From: Candidatus Anderseniibacteriota bacterium
GTDB lineage: Bacteria > Patescibacteriota > Andersenbacteria > UBA10190
Assembly: GCA_016197005.1 (NCBI GenBank)
Contig: JACPWO010000001.1
Location: 474,544-538,543 of the forward strand
Direction: 5' to 3'
DNA length: 64,000 nucleotides
Made by a program: the position numbers and the translations under genes
Part shown: positions 17,733 to 27,767 of the stretch, one piece after another
How the letters are laid out: the number at the start of each line of letters is the position of its first letter
Numbering within the stretch: position 1 is the stretch's first letter
Notes under the pieces: model-generated
What the model was told of the DNA's origin: nothing
Database searches by the model: none
Seen by the model: the letters and a program-made list of their open reading frames with translations, nothing else

Positions 17733-18178
17733 ATCCTATTATCTTCCTTATTCCTATAATCGTGGGAATTGCAGCTCAAGTATCTAAAGCTTTCTTAAAC
17801 AAGAACTGGCTGACCGAAAGTAAAATCCACGGGCGACATTTACCGCGTTATGGTGGCATGCCTTCCGCCCATACTGCTTTTGCGTTTTCTCTGGCTACGT
17901 TAGCTGCGTTAGCTGAGGGTATTGGGAGTATGAGTTTTGCAATTGCTTCAGCCTTGGTCATTTTACTTCTCGATGACGCCCTGCGCATGCGGGTATATTT
18001 AAGTCGCCACGGAGAAGCACTCGCTCAACTTATTAAATCTCAACCCCCTAGCGCACAGCAAAAATTCCCTCCTTTAGAGCGGCGTTTAGGACATTCTTTG
18101 CCAGAAGTAGTTGTGGGAGCGCTTGTAGGAATTGGGCTCACCATTGCCCTCTTTTGGCTGCTGGGCGGCCGCGCTTGA
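17729..18178 (+). CDS. Divergent PAP2-family (YuiD-like) membrane protein
   Basis: GGMPSAHTAFAFSL matches the GGMPSSHSA core of the divergent PAP2 family. Confidence 0.6.
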   Translation: MNPIIFLIPIIVGIAAQVSKAFLNKNWLTESKIHGRHLPRYGGMPSAHTAFAFSLATLAALAEGIGSMSFAIASALVILLLDDALRMRVYLSRHGEALAQLIKSQPPSAQQKFPPLERRLGHSLPEVVVGALVGIGLTIALFWLLGGRA

Positions 18179-18202
18179 CAGCCTTCAAGTCCTACCTATA
18201 CT
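18175..18202 (+). promoter_or_regulatory. Candidate 16S rRNA promoter (TTGACA -16- TATACT)
   Basis: Consensus -35 TTGACA at 18175-18180 overlapping the upstream stop codon; -10 TATACT at 18197-18202; ~205 nt upstream of 16S 5' end. Confidence 0.55.
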
Positions 18203-18408
18203 GATCAATACGATCCTTAACGGGTTGATACAATCCAAACAAAGAACACGCACTATTCTCAGTCAAAGTTCCAGACCAAAAGTGGTCACAGAGAATGTGC
18301 CCTCTTTTTTGTTTTAGGGGTCATGATCGTTTAACAATTTGCTACGGAATTATACGTTAAATTACGTTCTAGTCTGCGTATTTATACGCGACTACAAACG
18401 TCTTTCTA

Positions 18409-19878
18409 ACTCAGAGTTTGATCCTGGCTCAGGACGAACGCTGGCAGCGTGGATAAGGCATGCAAGTCGAGAGGGTTTAGACCCTCGGCAAACTGGTTAG
18501 TAACACGTAGGGAACCTTCCCGGAAGTGGGGAATAATCGCCCGAAAGGGCGGACAATACCCCATGGTTCATGAAGCGACAGCTTTCTTGATAAAGATTTA
18601 TCGCTTCCGGATGGTCCTGCGGCCTATCAGCTAGTTGGTGAGGTAATGGCTCACCAAGGCTACGACGGGTAGGGGATGTGAGAGCATGATCCCCAACACT
18701 GGGACTGAGACACTGCCCAGACACCTACGGGTGGCTGCAGTCGAGAATCTTCGGCAATGCACGAAAGTGCGACCGAGCGACGCTGCGTGCAGGAAGAAGG
18801 CCTTCGGGTTGTAAACTGCTTTTATTAGGGAAGAACTTTGACGGTACCTAATGAATAAGGGGCTGCTAACTCTGTGCCAGCAGCAGCGGTAATACAGAGG
18901 CCCCAAGCGTTGTCCGGAATTATTGGGCGTAAAGCGTCCGCAGGCGGCTTGTTGCATCTTTGATTAAAGCCCACCGCTTAACGGTGGATCTGTCAAAGAC
19001 ATGGGCAAGCTAGAGAAACGGAGAGGTAAGCGGAACTCCTGGTGGAGCGGTGAAATGCGTTGATATCAGGGGGAACACCAATTGCGAAGGCAGCTTACTG
19101 GCCGTTTTCTGACGCTCAGGGACGACAGCGTAGGGAGTGAACGGGATTAGATACCCCGGTAATCTACGCCGTAAACGATGCCGACTAGGCATTGGGAGAT
19201 CGATCCTCTCAGTGTCGAAGCTAACGCGTTAAGTCGGCCGCCTGGGTAGTACGGCCGCAAGGCTAAAACTCAAAGGAATAGACGGGGGCCCGCACAAGCG
19301 GTGGAGCGTGTGGTTTAATTCGATGGTAAGCGAGGAACCTTACCAGGGCTTGAAATCTAGCCTATGTTTTCCTGGAAACAGGAAATCTTAGTGGCTAGAC
19401 AGGTGCTGCACGGTTGTCGTCAGCTCGTGTCGTAAGATGTTCCCTTCAGTGGGGTAACGAGCGCAACCCTCATTGCGTGTTAATTTTCACGCGAGACTGC
19501 CGCCGTCAAGGCGGAGGAAGGCGGGGACGACGTCAAATCAGCGTGGCCCTCTGACGCCCTGGGCTACACACGCGCTACAATGGTTGGGACAACGGGTTGC
19601 AATTGCGCAAGCAAAAGCTAATCTCTTAAACCCAATCTCAGTTCGGATTGGAGTCTGCAATTCGACTCCATGAAGCTGGAATCGCTAGTAACCGTGGATC
19701 AGCCACGCCACGGTGAATACGTTCTCGGGCTTTGTACTCACCGCCCGTCAACTCAGAAGAGCTGACAGTACCCAAAACTCCTGAGAGCAATCTTAGGGAC
19801 TACGGTAAGGTCAGTAATTAGGAGTAAGTCGTAACAAGGCATCGCTAGCGGAAGCTGGCGATGGATCACCTCCTTTCT
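18409..19878 (+). rRNA. rrs: 16S ribosomal RNA (complete, ~1470 nt, no large insertion)
   Basis: 5' AGAGTTTGATCCTGGCTCAG; internal GTGCCAGCAGC[A]GCGGTAATAC (one extra A vs the universal 515 site), GCATGGTTGTCGTCAGCTCGTG; 3' GTCGTAACAAGG...GGATCACCTCCTTTCT anti-SD. Confidence 0.95.
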
Positions 19879-20118
19879 AGGGAGAAAACTGACGTTGTGT
19901 CGTGGTTAACCAGACACAACGCCCTAGAGGTCGACTTTGTCACTTTGACAAGGCTTGCTCGTAAAGAGCCGCGGAGAGCATATCCTCCACGAAAAACATG
20001 TGATATGCAACAAATAGAAAGACTACTTTGTAGTCGCGTATAAGAACGTAGAACATAGGCCGCCCTTAGGGCGGCTTTGTGTTGCAAAAGATACATTTTA
20101 AGGGTTAAATGGCACTAC

Positions 20119-20191
20119 GCGCGTGTAGCTCAGTGGTTAGAGCACCACACTGATAATGTGGGGGTCGAAGGTTCGATTCCTTCCACGCGCA
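20119..20191 (+). tRNA. tRNA-Ile (anticodon GAU)
   Basis: Acceptor GCGCGUG/CACGCGC+A73, anticodon stem CCACA/UGUGG loop CUGAUAA; near-identical to tRNA-Val at 5231. Confidence 0.9.
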
Positions 20192-20233
20192 CAAACAAAT
20201 GCACCTTCTGAACCTTTACCAAGGATCTATTAA

Positions 20234-20626
20234 ATGTCTAAATCTAGGCCAAAAACAAAGTTAGTTCGCTTTGGTCAGTATTTACAAGATTTACGGATAA
20301 CTAGAAAAAAGGGCTCTCAAAGAAAGGTTGCTACTGCCTTGAAATCACAAGGTCATCAGGTAACACAAGGCGCTATTGCACAGTATGAAGGGGGGCTGGT
20401 CACAAACCCGCATTACGAATTGCTCTCCGCCCTAGCACGACTCTACGATGAGCCATACGAAAACATGATCGTGCAATTAGTTGCCGATAAATACAAAGTG
20501 AAACCGCCTCCTGAGCAATTATCAGGTAGTTCTCTCCCAGTTCGCCCTGCGATTCGCTTGGAATTTCGAGACATCGACAGTTTGCGCGAAGCTGGTGAGT
20601 GGTTCTTCAACAAGATGCGACAGTGA
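20234..20626 (+). CDS. XRE-like helix-turn-helix DNA-binding protein
   Basis: N-terminal basic region followed by HTH-like segment (QRKVATALKSQGHQVTQGAIAQYEGG); 130 aa. Confidence 0.5.
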   Translation: MSKSRPKTKLVRFGQYLQDLRITRKKGSQRKVATALKSQGHQVTQGAIAQYEGGLVTNPHYELLSALARLYDEPYENMIVQLVADKYKVKPPPEQLSGSSLPVRPAIRLEFRDIDSLREAGEWFFNKMRQ

Positions 20627-26166: not shown

Positions 26167-26738
26167 AGCGAAATTCCTTGGCACGTAAGTTGTGTCCCGC
26201 ACGAATGGCGTCACGACTGGAGAACTGTCTCAACGAGGTACCCGGTGAAATTGCAATGTCGGTAAAGATGCCGCCACCCTGCGGCTAGACGGAAAGACCC
26301 CGTGAAGCTTCACTACAGCTTGATATTGGCACGTCGAACTCAATGCTCAGTATAGGTGGGAGACTTTGAACCAGGTGCTTCGGCGCCTGGGGAGTCACAA
26401 TATGAGATACCACCCTTTGTGTTTAACGCGTCTAACGGCGCAGTGCAATCCACTGCCCGGACAGTGTCTGGCGGGTAGTTTGTCTGGGGCGGATTCCTCC
26501 TAAATTGTAACGGAGGAGCCTATAAGGTTACCTAGGTCCGGATGGAAATCGGACTCGTCGTGTAAAGGCACAAGGTAGCTTAACTGCGAGGCGTACATGC
26601 CGAGCAGGCGCGAAAGCGGAGCTTAGTGAACCGACCGTTCTCGAATAGAAGAGCGGAAGATCATCGGATAAAAGTTACTCCGGGGATAACAGGCTGGTCT
26701 CGCCCAATAGTCCACATAGACGGCGAGGTTCGGCACCT

Positions 26739-27093
26739 TAATTAAAATCGGGGTGCCCAAGGAGTGATCCTTGAAAGTCTGAGTTATAAGTCTTTCTGAA
26801 TAATTACAGATAAAAATCGAATAGTAAGTAAACCAGCTAAAAACGGTGAACTCTTACCTATCTTGATGCATTAAAAAGATAGAAGACAACGCCGTGGGAA
26901 GCATGAATCCAAGGTGGACTCATGCCCCGTAACGACTGACTCGAAAGAGGAGGCCCACAAAACACAGTTAAGGAAATCACTGTGGGCAAAAGGCTGGCTC
27001 TCACTAATAAAAAGATGTTATGGAATTTCCTACGACATCTCGTGAGATGAAGGCATAGTCTAATCTTCTTGGAAACAAGAAGTAGAACGACAG
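26739..27093 (+). mobile_element. Second putative group I intron (ORF-less, ~355 nt) in 23S at the site equivalent to E. coli ~L2500 (GGCACCT | CGATGTCGGCTC)
   Basis: Flanks reconstitute the conserved GGCACCTCGATGTCGGCTC; 5' exon ends in U and insert ends in G; insert contains GGCATAGTC (P7 3'-strand-like). Confidence 0.6.
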
Positions 27094-27577
27094 CGATGTC
27101 GGCTCAACCTATCCTGGAGGGGAAGCACCTTCCAAGGGTGTGTCTGTTCGCCACTTAAAAGGTTACGTGAGCTGGGTTCAAACCGTCGCAAGACAGGTTG
27201 GACCCTATCTGTCGCAGGCGTGGAAACTTGAGGAGCGTCCACAATAGTACGAGAGGACCTTGTGGGACCGACCTCTAGTGTACCAGTTGTCCCGTTCTGG
27301 GGCATCGCTGGGTAGCTATGTCGGGCTGGTGATAAGTGCTGAAAGCATCTAAGCACGAAGCCCACTCCAAGATCAGGTTTCAATAACGAGACTCCTAGAA
27401 GACTACTAGGTTGATAGGCAGGAGGTGTACGCGCAGTAATGCGCTCAGCCGACCTGTACTAATGTTCCAGTTGTATGATTCTTACCACCGACATGAGCAA
27501 ATTGCTTTGTTAATAGCTAGCGATGCGTATTTACGCAGTCGTTTAATTAATGATATTGCGTCGTTTCAATTCAGAGA

Positions 27578-27694
27578 TCGTGGTGTCTCAAGAGAGAGGG
27601 AAACACCTGTTCCCATTCCGAACACAGAAGTTAAGCCTCTCATCGTCGATGGTAGTTGGAAATGATACTCCAGCGAGAGTAGACCGATGCCACG
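27578..27694 (+). rRNA. rrf: 5S ribosomal RNA
   Basis: CCCATTCCGAACACAGAAGTTAAGCC, GATGGTAGT, GCGAGAGTAG motifs; helix I pairing between CGTGGTGTC and GATGCCACG. Confidence 0.85.
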
Positions 27695-27719
27695 TTTTCT
27701 GAATTGAAACCCTTCAAAC

Positions 27720-27748
27720 AAACCGCGCTATGCGGTTTGTTTTGTTTG
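27720..27748 (+). terminator. Rho-independent terminator after 5S (AAACCGCG-CTAT-GCGGTTT then GTTTTGTTTG)
   Basis: GC-rich hairpin and T-rich tail. Confidence 0.6.
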
Positions 27749-27767
27749 TGTATAGTATGATCGGATT

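Follow-up and report, generated by a model that had tools for sequence, protein, structure and literature searches.

A stretched rRNA locus in Candidatus Andersenbacteria, probably dissolved into separately promoted units, with a predicted attenuator ahead of the 23S gene

The ribosomal RNA (rRNA) locus described here lies in a 64-kb stretch of contig JACPWO010000001.1 (assembly GCA_016197005.1, a Candidatus Anderseniibacteriota bacterium); we call this whole stretch the window and count all positions from its first letter. The 16S and 23S genes are 3,883 bp apart (19876 to 23760), and the gap holds a transfer RNA (tRNA) gene for Ile, four protein genes and an inverted tRNA-Ala gene. We consider it likely that the locus is an ancestral operon which kept its order while being dissolved into separately promoted units, with an attenuator in the 23S leader, a reading suggested by the conservation of the gene order and of the sequence signals in relatives. 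RNA genes were placed with Rfam and ARAGORN, protein families with Pfam, and homologues in relatives by tblastn. The 16S gene (18406-19876, + strand; Rfam RF00177, 1460 bits) is full length and free of insertions. It is followed by tRNA-Ile(GAU) (20119-20192, +), in which the 3' CCA is not encoded, the four protein genes, tRNA-Ala(UGC) (22409-22480, −), oriented opposite to the rRNA genes, and the 23S gene (23760-27482, +), which is 3,723 nt long, or 3,068 nt without its two introns. The 5S gene (27579-27695, +; 86 bits) forms one unit with the 23S gene, and a hairpin scan of the window found no terminator between the two. One copy of each rRNA gene is present within the window. A first-pass annotation of the same DNA had given this gene order, with 16S and 23S about 3.9 kb apart, and both agree with our placements; every feature it listed is present, but it overlooked two group I introns in the 23S gene and a predicted antiterminator that partners the hairpin in the 23S leader. 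The order of the canonical rrn operon, 16S-tRNA-Ile(GAU)-tRNA-Ala(UGC)-23S-5S, is thus retained. The spacer, however, is not the short, tRNA-only, one-strand spacer of such operons, given its four protein genes and its tRNA-Ala on the minus strand, and it contains predicted internal promoter/terminator pairs, conserved in relatives, which the canonical operon lacks. That departure from the canonical operon, pointed out in the first-pass annotation, is real, but has already been documented for Patescibacteria (doi 10.1101/705046).

Judged by gene order in relatives, the arrangement is a conserved trait of the Andersenbacteria lineage. Related loci, designated by L numbers, were collected by way of the CCA-adding enzyme encoded in the spacer (11 loci), of a DNA pattern of the 23S leader in metagenomes (6 distinct loci) and of a spacer membrane protein (9 distinct loci). 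The layout recurs in about 26 independent Andersenbacteria assemblies, and the shared order, judged in all loci that extend far enough, is (RNase HII-L32-NusB-RNase III-SMC-S16-KH protein-)TrmD-DUF212-16S-tRNAIle-CCA enzyme-small membrane protein-tRNAAla-membrane protein-23S-5S-(tRNASer)-IF2-RbfA. The closest relatives of the CCA enzyme (60-72% identity) all come from metagenome-assembled genomes that carry the label Candidatus Andersenbacteria or unclassified Patescibacteria. Where the CCA enzyme of a Patescibacterium is at most 57% identical, no rRNA was found within 10 kb of its gene. The distance between 16S and 23S among the relatives is 3.5-8.5 kb, and contigs carrying both genes include some of 142, 174, 436 and 541 kb. 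An assembly or binning artefact, in which the end of a 16S contig was joined to unrelated DNA, had been named beforehand as a possible refutation. rRNA genes are common break or chimera points in metagenome assemblies, and many related contigs do end inside rRNA genes. Because at least 14 independent assemblies (NCBI, ENA, JGI and Logan) show this order with 16S and 23S joined on a single contig, we give an artefact virtually no chance of being the explanation.

Around this conserved frame the locus is rearranged from one relative to the next. Unrelated genes are inserted at differing points and reach 9 kb, some of them on the opposite strand: L002 has 9 kb between tRNA-Ile and the CCA gene, L102 has opposite-strand genes for sugar-modifying enzymes, and L107 and L108 carry an OMP decarboxylase and a peptidase, respectively, as passengers. 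Most relatives have tRNA-Ala on the plus strand; the inverted orientation was seen in the window, in L015 and in L103, the last of which also has tRNA-Ile inverted. No inverted repeats that might have caused the inversion were found flanking tRNA-Ala in the window. In L015, a partial second copy of tRNA-Ala lies beside the inverted gene (5071-5142 and 5219-5273), and may be a trace of the rearrangement behind the inversion.

Promoter-like sites were scored as matches, out of 12, to sigma-70-like −35/−10 hexamers. A TTGACA-16-TATACT site precedes the 16S gene (18175-18202, +; 11/12), and the TGA stop codon of the upstream DUF212/PAP2-like gene (17729-18178) falls inside its −35 TTGACA (18176-18181). 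Upstream of 16S, one site of at least 10/12 is present in 10/11 loci, 150-335 nt before the gene. The TTGACA-16-TATAGT element before 23S (23383-23410, +; 11/12) is present as the first-pass annotation had it, and the 800 nt upstream of 23S hold exactly one site of at least 10/12 in 18/18 loci, 262-669 nt before the gene. Absent from the earlier list is a 12/12 site, TTGACA-18-TATAAT (22522-22551, +), ahead of the second membrane protein gene; it stands back-to-back with a minus-strand site, TTGTCA-17-CATACT (22500-22528, −; 9/12), that would serve the inverted tRNA-Ala. A further site, TTGCAA-17-TTAAAT (20082-20110, +), ends 8 nt 5' of tRNA-Ile. In most relatives, TTGCAAA-N16/17-TTTAAT (or a TTTACT variant) precedes tRNA-Ile at 8-28 nt, coming straight after the hairpin that follows 16S, and the same element precedes tRNA-Ala.

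Hairpins of the intrinsic-terminator form, GC-rich and followed by a U-tract, close several of these stretches. One follows the helix-turn-helix (HTH) protein gene of the spacer (20644-20665, +, then TTTTATTT, with UUUUAUUU as its U-tract; −16.1 kcal/mol, z −4.1). Another, with U6, ends the second membrane protein gene (23333-23366, +; −17.5 kcal/mol, z −3.4); the terminator proposed earlier at 23338-23366 is this hairpin, and its equivalents precede the 23S promoter in relatives. A third ends the 23S-5S unit (27716-27742, +; −15.1 kcal/mol, z −3.6), and a fourth lies in the 23S leader (23489-23513, then U6). Between 16S and tRNA-Ile, the GC hairpin AGGCCGCCC-TTA-GGGCGGCTT (20058-20078, +; −21.5 kcal/mol and z −4.4 for the fold of 20056-20080) is present as the first-pass annotation had claimed, but its U-tract is weak (TTTGTGTT; only UUUGUGUU). 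It is likely the terminator of the 16S unit, possibly a leaky one; in L003, L004, L005, L006, L008, L009 and L010, a GC hairpin with a U-run follows the 16S trailer. Each of the two large rRNAs also has a processing stem of its own. A 26-nt inverted repeat, 88% complementary, brackets 16S (18373-18398 pairs with 20027-20052, both +), and one of 25 nt, also 88%, brackets 23S and leaves 5S outside (23700-23724 with 27506-27530, both +). The 23S leader-trailer duplex reaches −87.7 kcal/mol, compared with −37.4 +/- 4.6 kcal/mol for shuffled trailers (RNAduplex); for the 16S stem this control is not discriminating, and the exact inverted repeat is the evidence used. Both leaders contain boxA-like boxes. 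That of 16S, TTTAACAATTT (18330-18340, +), is an 11-mer identical in the boxA region of the E. coli rrsH leader (L001), and relatives have GAAC.TT..CAATT at this position; that of 23S, GAACACTGCCAATTGAATA (23593-23611, +), belongs to the motif GAyC.TT..CAATTGAA conserved in the 23S leaders of relatives, and GAyC.TT..CAATT is conserved in both of their leaders. Comparison of the 23S leaders also brought out a long conserved hairpin (23538-23582, +). The 16S leader has a hairpin followed by CTCTTTTTTG about 100 nt past its promoter (18281-18318), shared with L004 (GAATGTGCCCTCTTTTTTG); its sequence is unrelated to the 23S leader element, and no open reading frame (ORF) was seen with it.

From gene content, from the conserved order and from the conserved signals, we infer how the signals would be used and where units would begin and end: the ancestral operon now appears to form five or six adjoining units. 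One would run from the promoter at 18175 through the leader with its boxA-like box and 16S, in its own processing stem, to the terminator at 20058-20078; the next from the promoter at 20082 through tRNA-Ile, and probably on into the HTH gene, to the terminator at 20644. The CCA-adding enzyme gene and the small membrane protein gene would form a third, and tRNA-Ala, with its own promoter on the opposite strand, a fourth. A fifth would lead from the promoter at 22522 through the second membrane protein gene to the terminator at 23333-23366. The last would start at 23383 and comprise a 350-nt leader, 23S with its two group I introns (predicted to be self-splicing) and 5S, up to the terminator at 27716. 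With a promoter of its own for every piece, tRNA inversions and gene insertions such as those of the relatives would be harmless. The proposal of the first-pass annotation that 16S and 23S are probably transcribed separately therefore gains support from the order, promoters, terminators and stems conserved across about 26 assemblies.

Several points weigh against separate units. Promoters and terminators are sequence predictions throughout. Promoter-like sites within the window are not enriched (9 observed, 13.6 expected from shuffles), so that such sites gain weight only from their conservation in relatives. Moreover, the poor U-tract of the hairpin after 16S makes read-through into tRNA-Ile likely, and the boxA-like boxes hint at rRNA antitermination complexes, which could carry polymerase past terminators further downstream. 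A rival view is that the locus is still one functional operon, in which polymerase starting at the 16S promoter and modified by boxA and Nus factors reads through to 5S, the internal promoter-like sites merely topping up the expression of the embedded genes. Such an operon would agree with the weak U-tract after 16S and with 16S, tRNA-Ile, the CCA gene, the membrane protein gene, 23S and 5S being conserved in order and co-directional, as well as with the boxA-like boxes and the NusB and RNase III genes shortly upstream in relatives; a second boxA precedes 23S in E. coli too. We nevertheless regard it as unlikely. Read-through from 16S to 23S in the window would have to cross three terminator-like hairpins with good U-tracts (at 20644, at 23333 and, conditionally, at 23493-23519) and a tRNA gene on the opposite strand, joined in L103 by tRNA-Ile; it would also leave aside the near-consensus promoter before 23S in 18/18 loci and the insertions of up to 9 kb in relatives, opposite-strand genes included. 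The separate 16S and 23S processing stems point the same way, although linked operons have such stems too. As for the NusB and RNase III genes themselves, they were seen a few kb 5' of 16S in L098, L099, L100 and L106 (upstream 0-5 kb), within the conserved block RNase HII-L32-NusB-RNase III-SMC-S16-KH-TrmD.

The leader of the proposed 23S unit is the single feature of the locus that we have not found described elsewhere. Its first 110 nt past the promoter are strongly conserved and consist of an invariant AUG, a hairpin P1 (UGCAG...CUGCA), GACCCCACGAAGCGG, a variable hairpin, CCGCUUCCUCUGGA, GCGG and a U-run. Three segments matter for what follows: region 2 (CCAcGAAGCGG; 23451-23461, +), region 3 (CCGCUUCcucUGG; 23493-23505, +) and region 4 (AAGCGG in the window, otherwise GGAGCGG), which with U6 spans 23508-23519 (+), its 23508-23513 part being the 3' arm of a terminator. 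Regions 2 and 4 are both complementary to region 3, so region 3 can pair either back with region 2, as the antiterminator hairpin H, or forward with region 4. The forward hairpin (23489-23517, stem AAAACCGCTT/AAGCGGTTTT, T6 at 23514-23519) folds at −14 kcal/mol (z −2.0). The hairpin reported at 23489-23521 by the first-pass annotation does therefore fold, but it is not a simple terminator, as the prediction is that a conserved antiterminator prevails over it. As in an attenuator, a segment that can pair with the 5' arm of the hairpin lies upstream and is conserved in 16 leaders, and the U-tract after region 4 is conserved in all terminator-bearing (type A) ones. The 2:3 hairpin is the RNAalifold consensus; it forms before region 4 exists in 15/15 leaders folded and stays the minimum-energy fold in 11/15, and masking of the 5' part allows a 3:4 terminator with a folding energy of −8 to −19 kcal/mol (n=15). 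Regions 2 and 4 would thus compete for region 3, and with the 2:3 pairing made first and predicted to prevail, the default state would be read-through into 23S. The 23S leader is predicted to be an attenuator with a read-through default, as wanted before an rRNA gene; if region 2 were masked, the 3:4 hairpin with U6 would form and transcription would end about 100 nt past its start.

The 110-nt motif occurs once per locus and solely before 23S. Each locus likewise has a single copy of the exact 13-mer CCGCTTCCTCTGG of region 3, always in the 23S leader, and neither nhmmer nor a covariance model found a second copy, for instance in the 16S leader. Seven distinct leaders have the promoter and hairpin H without the terminator: L039, L098/99, L100/101, L105 and L106 have a shorter H and no U-run, and L102 and L108 have P1 and H. 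In these terminator-less leaders both helices of H change in a compensatory way, the outer one from CCA:UGG to CUA:UAG and the inner one from GAAGC:GCUUC to GAAUC:GAUUC or GAACC:GGUUC. No Rfam family was found for the leader (23400-23770, E <= 10; only chance microRNA and snoRNA matches), nor did conserved pieces of it show pairing or mimicry of at least 9 nt with 16S, 23S, 5S or their flanks. Likenesses seen by eye to signal recognition particle RNA and to a PyrR site were both dropped, being without Rfam support and, for the PyrR site, on the wrong strand. The pattern scan of metagenomes gave 14 matches, of which five (L085, L086, L089, L090 and L095) were set aside as chance hits in GC-rich coding DNA without promoter, U-run or 23S.

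What might mask region 2 we infer from the company that the terminator keeps. All 16 terminator-bearing leaders have an ORF of 10-17 codons starting at the invariant AUG, with its in-frame stop beside region 2; in the window it is MQKAFNCKTPRSG*, of 13 codons (23424-23465, +), with the AUG within P1 and the stop directly 3' of region 2. In 15 leaders the stop begins 0-12 nt past region 2; in the remaining one it begins 6 nt ahead of that region's 3' end. The spacing between the ATG and region 2 is 27 nt for 13 leaders and 30 nt for one. For two sister sequences it is 26 nt, and these have +1 and +4 nt immediately ahead of their stop codons, which restores the frame; the length past the stop varies freely. 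In the seven terminator-less leaders, the homologous AUG-ORF, the stop beside region 2 and the U-run are all missing, and even L102 and L108, which have P1, lack an AUG and a stop at the corresponding places. A Shine-Dalgarno-like motif is not found before the leader AUG, which need not count against translation, as only 6/38 long ORFs of the window have one. For several long ORFs (27768, 43816 and 57287 among them) a −10-like box was also seen 6-11 nt 5' of the ATG, which suggests that many messages in the window may be leaderless or have short leaders. We therefore propose, tentatively and with more doubt than confidence, a ribosome-dependent attenuation of 23S-5S synthesis by way of the leader ORF. 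A ribosome that had translated the 13 codons, the masking agent that we prefer, would sit on the stop and mask region 2, the terminator would form, and plentiful idle ribosomes would in this manner lower the synthesis of 23S and 5S.

Part of the evidence weighs against this attenuator or its reading by ribosomes. Hairpin H is invariant among the terminator-bearing leaders and shows no covariation there; with both strands invariant, the covariation test within that group is uninformative, and support comes only from the divergent leaders. Six of the 16 terminator-bearing sequences were, moreover, retrieved by a pattern that requires regions 2 and 3. The leader peptide shows no conservation, and an ORF of this length could stay open by chance; its AUG is part of the P1 stem, and the predicted 5' untranslated region of 5-9 nt makes it neither leaderless nor Shine-Dalgarno-led. 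The 16 leaders probably form one clade, so that the joint occurrence of AUG and terminator may be a single evolutionary event. Nothing comparable is present in the 16S leader, so that a sensor of ribosomes acting only on 23S would put the two rRNAs out of balance. Finally, hairpin H exists without any ORF, which points to an older partner such as a protein. An alternative reading is that the leader is an attenuator or riboswitch-like RNA in which a protein, such as a Nus factor or a free ribosomal protein, or else a small ligand covers region 2, and that the ORF is incidental; this is possible, but we would not count on it. Leaders without AUG and terminator still conserve H, including its 1x3 internal loop and the invariant UCCUCUGGA, which argues for a sequence-specific partner older than the terminator. 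It is the nucleotides, not the amino acids, that are conserved, L082 and L087 reading the conserved block in another frame, and protein-mediated attenuation of ribosomal operons is established, with L10(L12)4 acting on B. subtilis rplJL (PMC4538822). A protein or ligand would, however, leave unexplained the AUG that is invariant in 16/16 terminator-bearing leaders and missing from the P1 hairpins of L102 and L108, the stop codon beside region 2, and the indels that preserve the frame or are compensated; nor does the leader match an Rfam family. We think it very unlikely that the promoter at 23383 mainly makes a small RNA (sRNA) of about 100 nt (23417-23519), with 23S transcription depending on leak-through or starting elsewhere. 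An sRNA gene would typically look like this, with a strong promoter, conserved RNA structure and a hairpin with U6 some 100 nt on, but from the U-run to 23S no other promoter-like site of at least 10/12 exists in any of the 18 loci, folding predicts that the antiterminator wins, seven distinct leaders have the promoter and H without a terminator, and all copies of the motif that were found accompany a 23S gene.

A switch between an antiterminator and a terminator that exclude each other, with a short ORF ahead of it, is shared with trp-type leaders and with antibiotic-sensing ones, such as those of bmrCD (PMC4191407) and yxjB (PMC6851288), and as in ribosome-mediated attenuators the stop is placed so that a terminating ribosome would cover the 5' strand of the antiterminator. 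In contrast to those systems, the target here would be an rRNA operon and not an mRNA, read-through is the predicted default of the untranslated leader, and regulatory codon runs, a conserved peptide and a Shine-Dalgarno sequence are all absent. No published example of leader-peptide attenuation of an rRNA operon was found in the literature.

The labels that the first-pass annotation had given to the four spacer ORFs (XRE-like HTH, CCA-adding enzyme and two membrane proteins) agree with Pfam, the HTH match being weak. The HTH protein gene (20234-20626, +; 130 aa) matches HTH_31 at 24 bits and HTH_3 at 21 bits, both below the Pfam cut-off; tblastn found no counterpart in any related locus, and by that comparison the gene is specific to the present genome. 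The CCA-adding enzyme/poly(A) polymerase family gene (20713-22149, +; 478 aa) has the domains PolyA_pol, PolyA_pol_RNAbd, HD and tRNA_NucTran2_2 (PF01743, PF12627, PF01966 and PF13735) and lies between tRNA-Ile and tRNA-Ala in all close relatives. The small membrane protein gene (22115-22408, +), without a Pfam match, probably has its true start at the ATG at 22157; homologues of 33-51% identity come after the CCA gene in relatives. The last spacer gene (22616-23317, +; 233 aa) encodes a membrane protein with the transmembrane helices of MS_channel_1st_1 (Pfam). It is always directly 5' of the 23S unit, its homologues in relatives are 62-83% identical, and the protein is identical to NCBI HYZ61_02710 of Candidatus Andersenbacteria.

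The length of the 23S gene is due to two group I introns, located by alignment to E. coli 23S. The first (25867-26166, +; 300 nt; RF00028, 70 bits, cut-off 50) follows the base equivalent to E. coli U1931 (GGU|AGAGG...TTCG|AGCGAAATTCC); the second (26739-27093, +; 355 nt) follows that equivalent to U2500 (GGCACCT|TAATT...ACAG|CGATGTCGG) and scores below the same cut-off (45.6 bits, E 1.7e-10). Neither has an ORF, and both show a U as the last base of the 5' exon, a G as the last base of the intron, and flanking exons that join into normal 23S sequence. Relative to E. coli, domain I of 23S has extra segments of 99 nt (23990-24088) and of roughly 40 nt (24152-24187 and 24316-24357), which could be expansion segments or intervening sequences excised by RNase III. 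Intron content varies among close relatives: large insertions were seen in the 16S genes of L003, L004, L010 and L082 (2.1-2.8 kb) and in the 23S genes of L006, L039, L083 and L108 (4.5-6.1 kb), the last with a LAGLIDADG_2 ORF inside 23S. Such insertions are reported for 82% of 23S genes of the candidate phyla radiation (CPR), with 1931 among the common sites (PMC11270868), and the introns of the present 23S are ordinary for the CPR. As with the CPR introns, their sites are close to the peptidyl-transferase region, in the 3' half of the gene, and 1931 is frequent among CPR sites; neither encodes a homing endonuclease, in contrast to the LAGLIDADG ORF of L108.

Two further observations in the window concern neither the rRNA genes nor the spacer. 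A tRNA-Ile with the anticodon UAU (5106-5180, −) has as its neighbour a tRNA-Val(GAC) on the opposite strand. An isoleucine tRNA with this anticodon is unusual among bacteria, and AUA may here be read without lysidine modification. Just 5' of TrmD, 14449-17010 encodes a secreted or surface protein of 853 aa with long Pro-Thr repeats and two repeated C-terminal domains.

Unlinked rRNA genes have been defined as those whose closest 16S and 23S edges are more than 1,500 bp apart, and Patescibacteria are among the groups in which they cluster (Brewer et al., doi 10.1101/705046). With 3,883 bp in the window and 3.5-8.5 kb in at least 14 related loci that have both genes, the trait is conserved in the clade and not sporadic, and to read the present locus as unlinked is correct, if of a known kind and unsurprising for Patescibacteria. 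It resembles the cases of Brewer et al. in distance, in keeping 5S with 23S and in being clade-wide. Those genes, however, are mostly more than 6 kb apart and scattered, whereas here order, strand, neighbourhood and spacer tRNAs are kept, as in a stretched, internally promoted operon and not a dispersed one; and the conserved passengers (the CCA-adding enzyme and two membrane proteins) were not described there. With E. coli rrnH (PMC5179076; L001) the locus shares gene order, both spacer tRNAs, a boxA-like box and leader-trailer stems. It differs from rrnH, which yields one precursor from P1/P2 (PMC5179076), in that protein genes take up 3.9 kb of its spacer, its tRNA-Ala is inverted, group I introns interrupt its 23S gene, and promoters and terminators, conserved in relatives, are predicted inside the locus. 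What the present work adds is that the layout holds in all examined Andersenbacteria, with the ancestral order, fixed passengers including the CCA-adding enzyme and conserved signals for each unit. With order kept and a promoter apparently belonging to every piece, the locus offers a clear intermediate in which the stepwise dissolution of an operon can be followed, and which shows why tRNA inversions and gene insertions become tolerable.

Unlinked rRNA genes pose the old question of how 16S and 23S are kept in balance without a common transcript, and Patescibacteria are a group without many of the classical regulators. Across the Andersenbacteria examined, a CCA-adding enzyme is tied to two spacer tRNAs in which CCA is not encoded. 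The switch in the 23S leader, possibly read by ribosomes, offers a testable form of rRNA dosage control in organisms not yet grown alone and, if true, a ribosome-sensing attenuator would amount to a cis-encoded feedback of ribosomes on rRNA synthesis.

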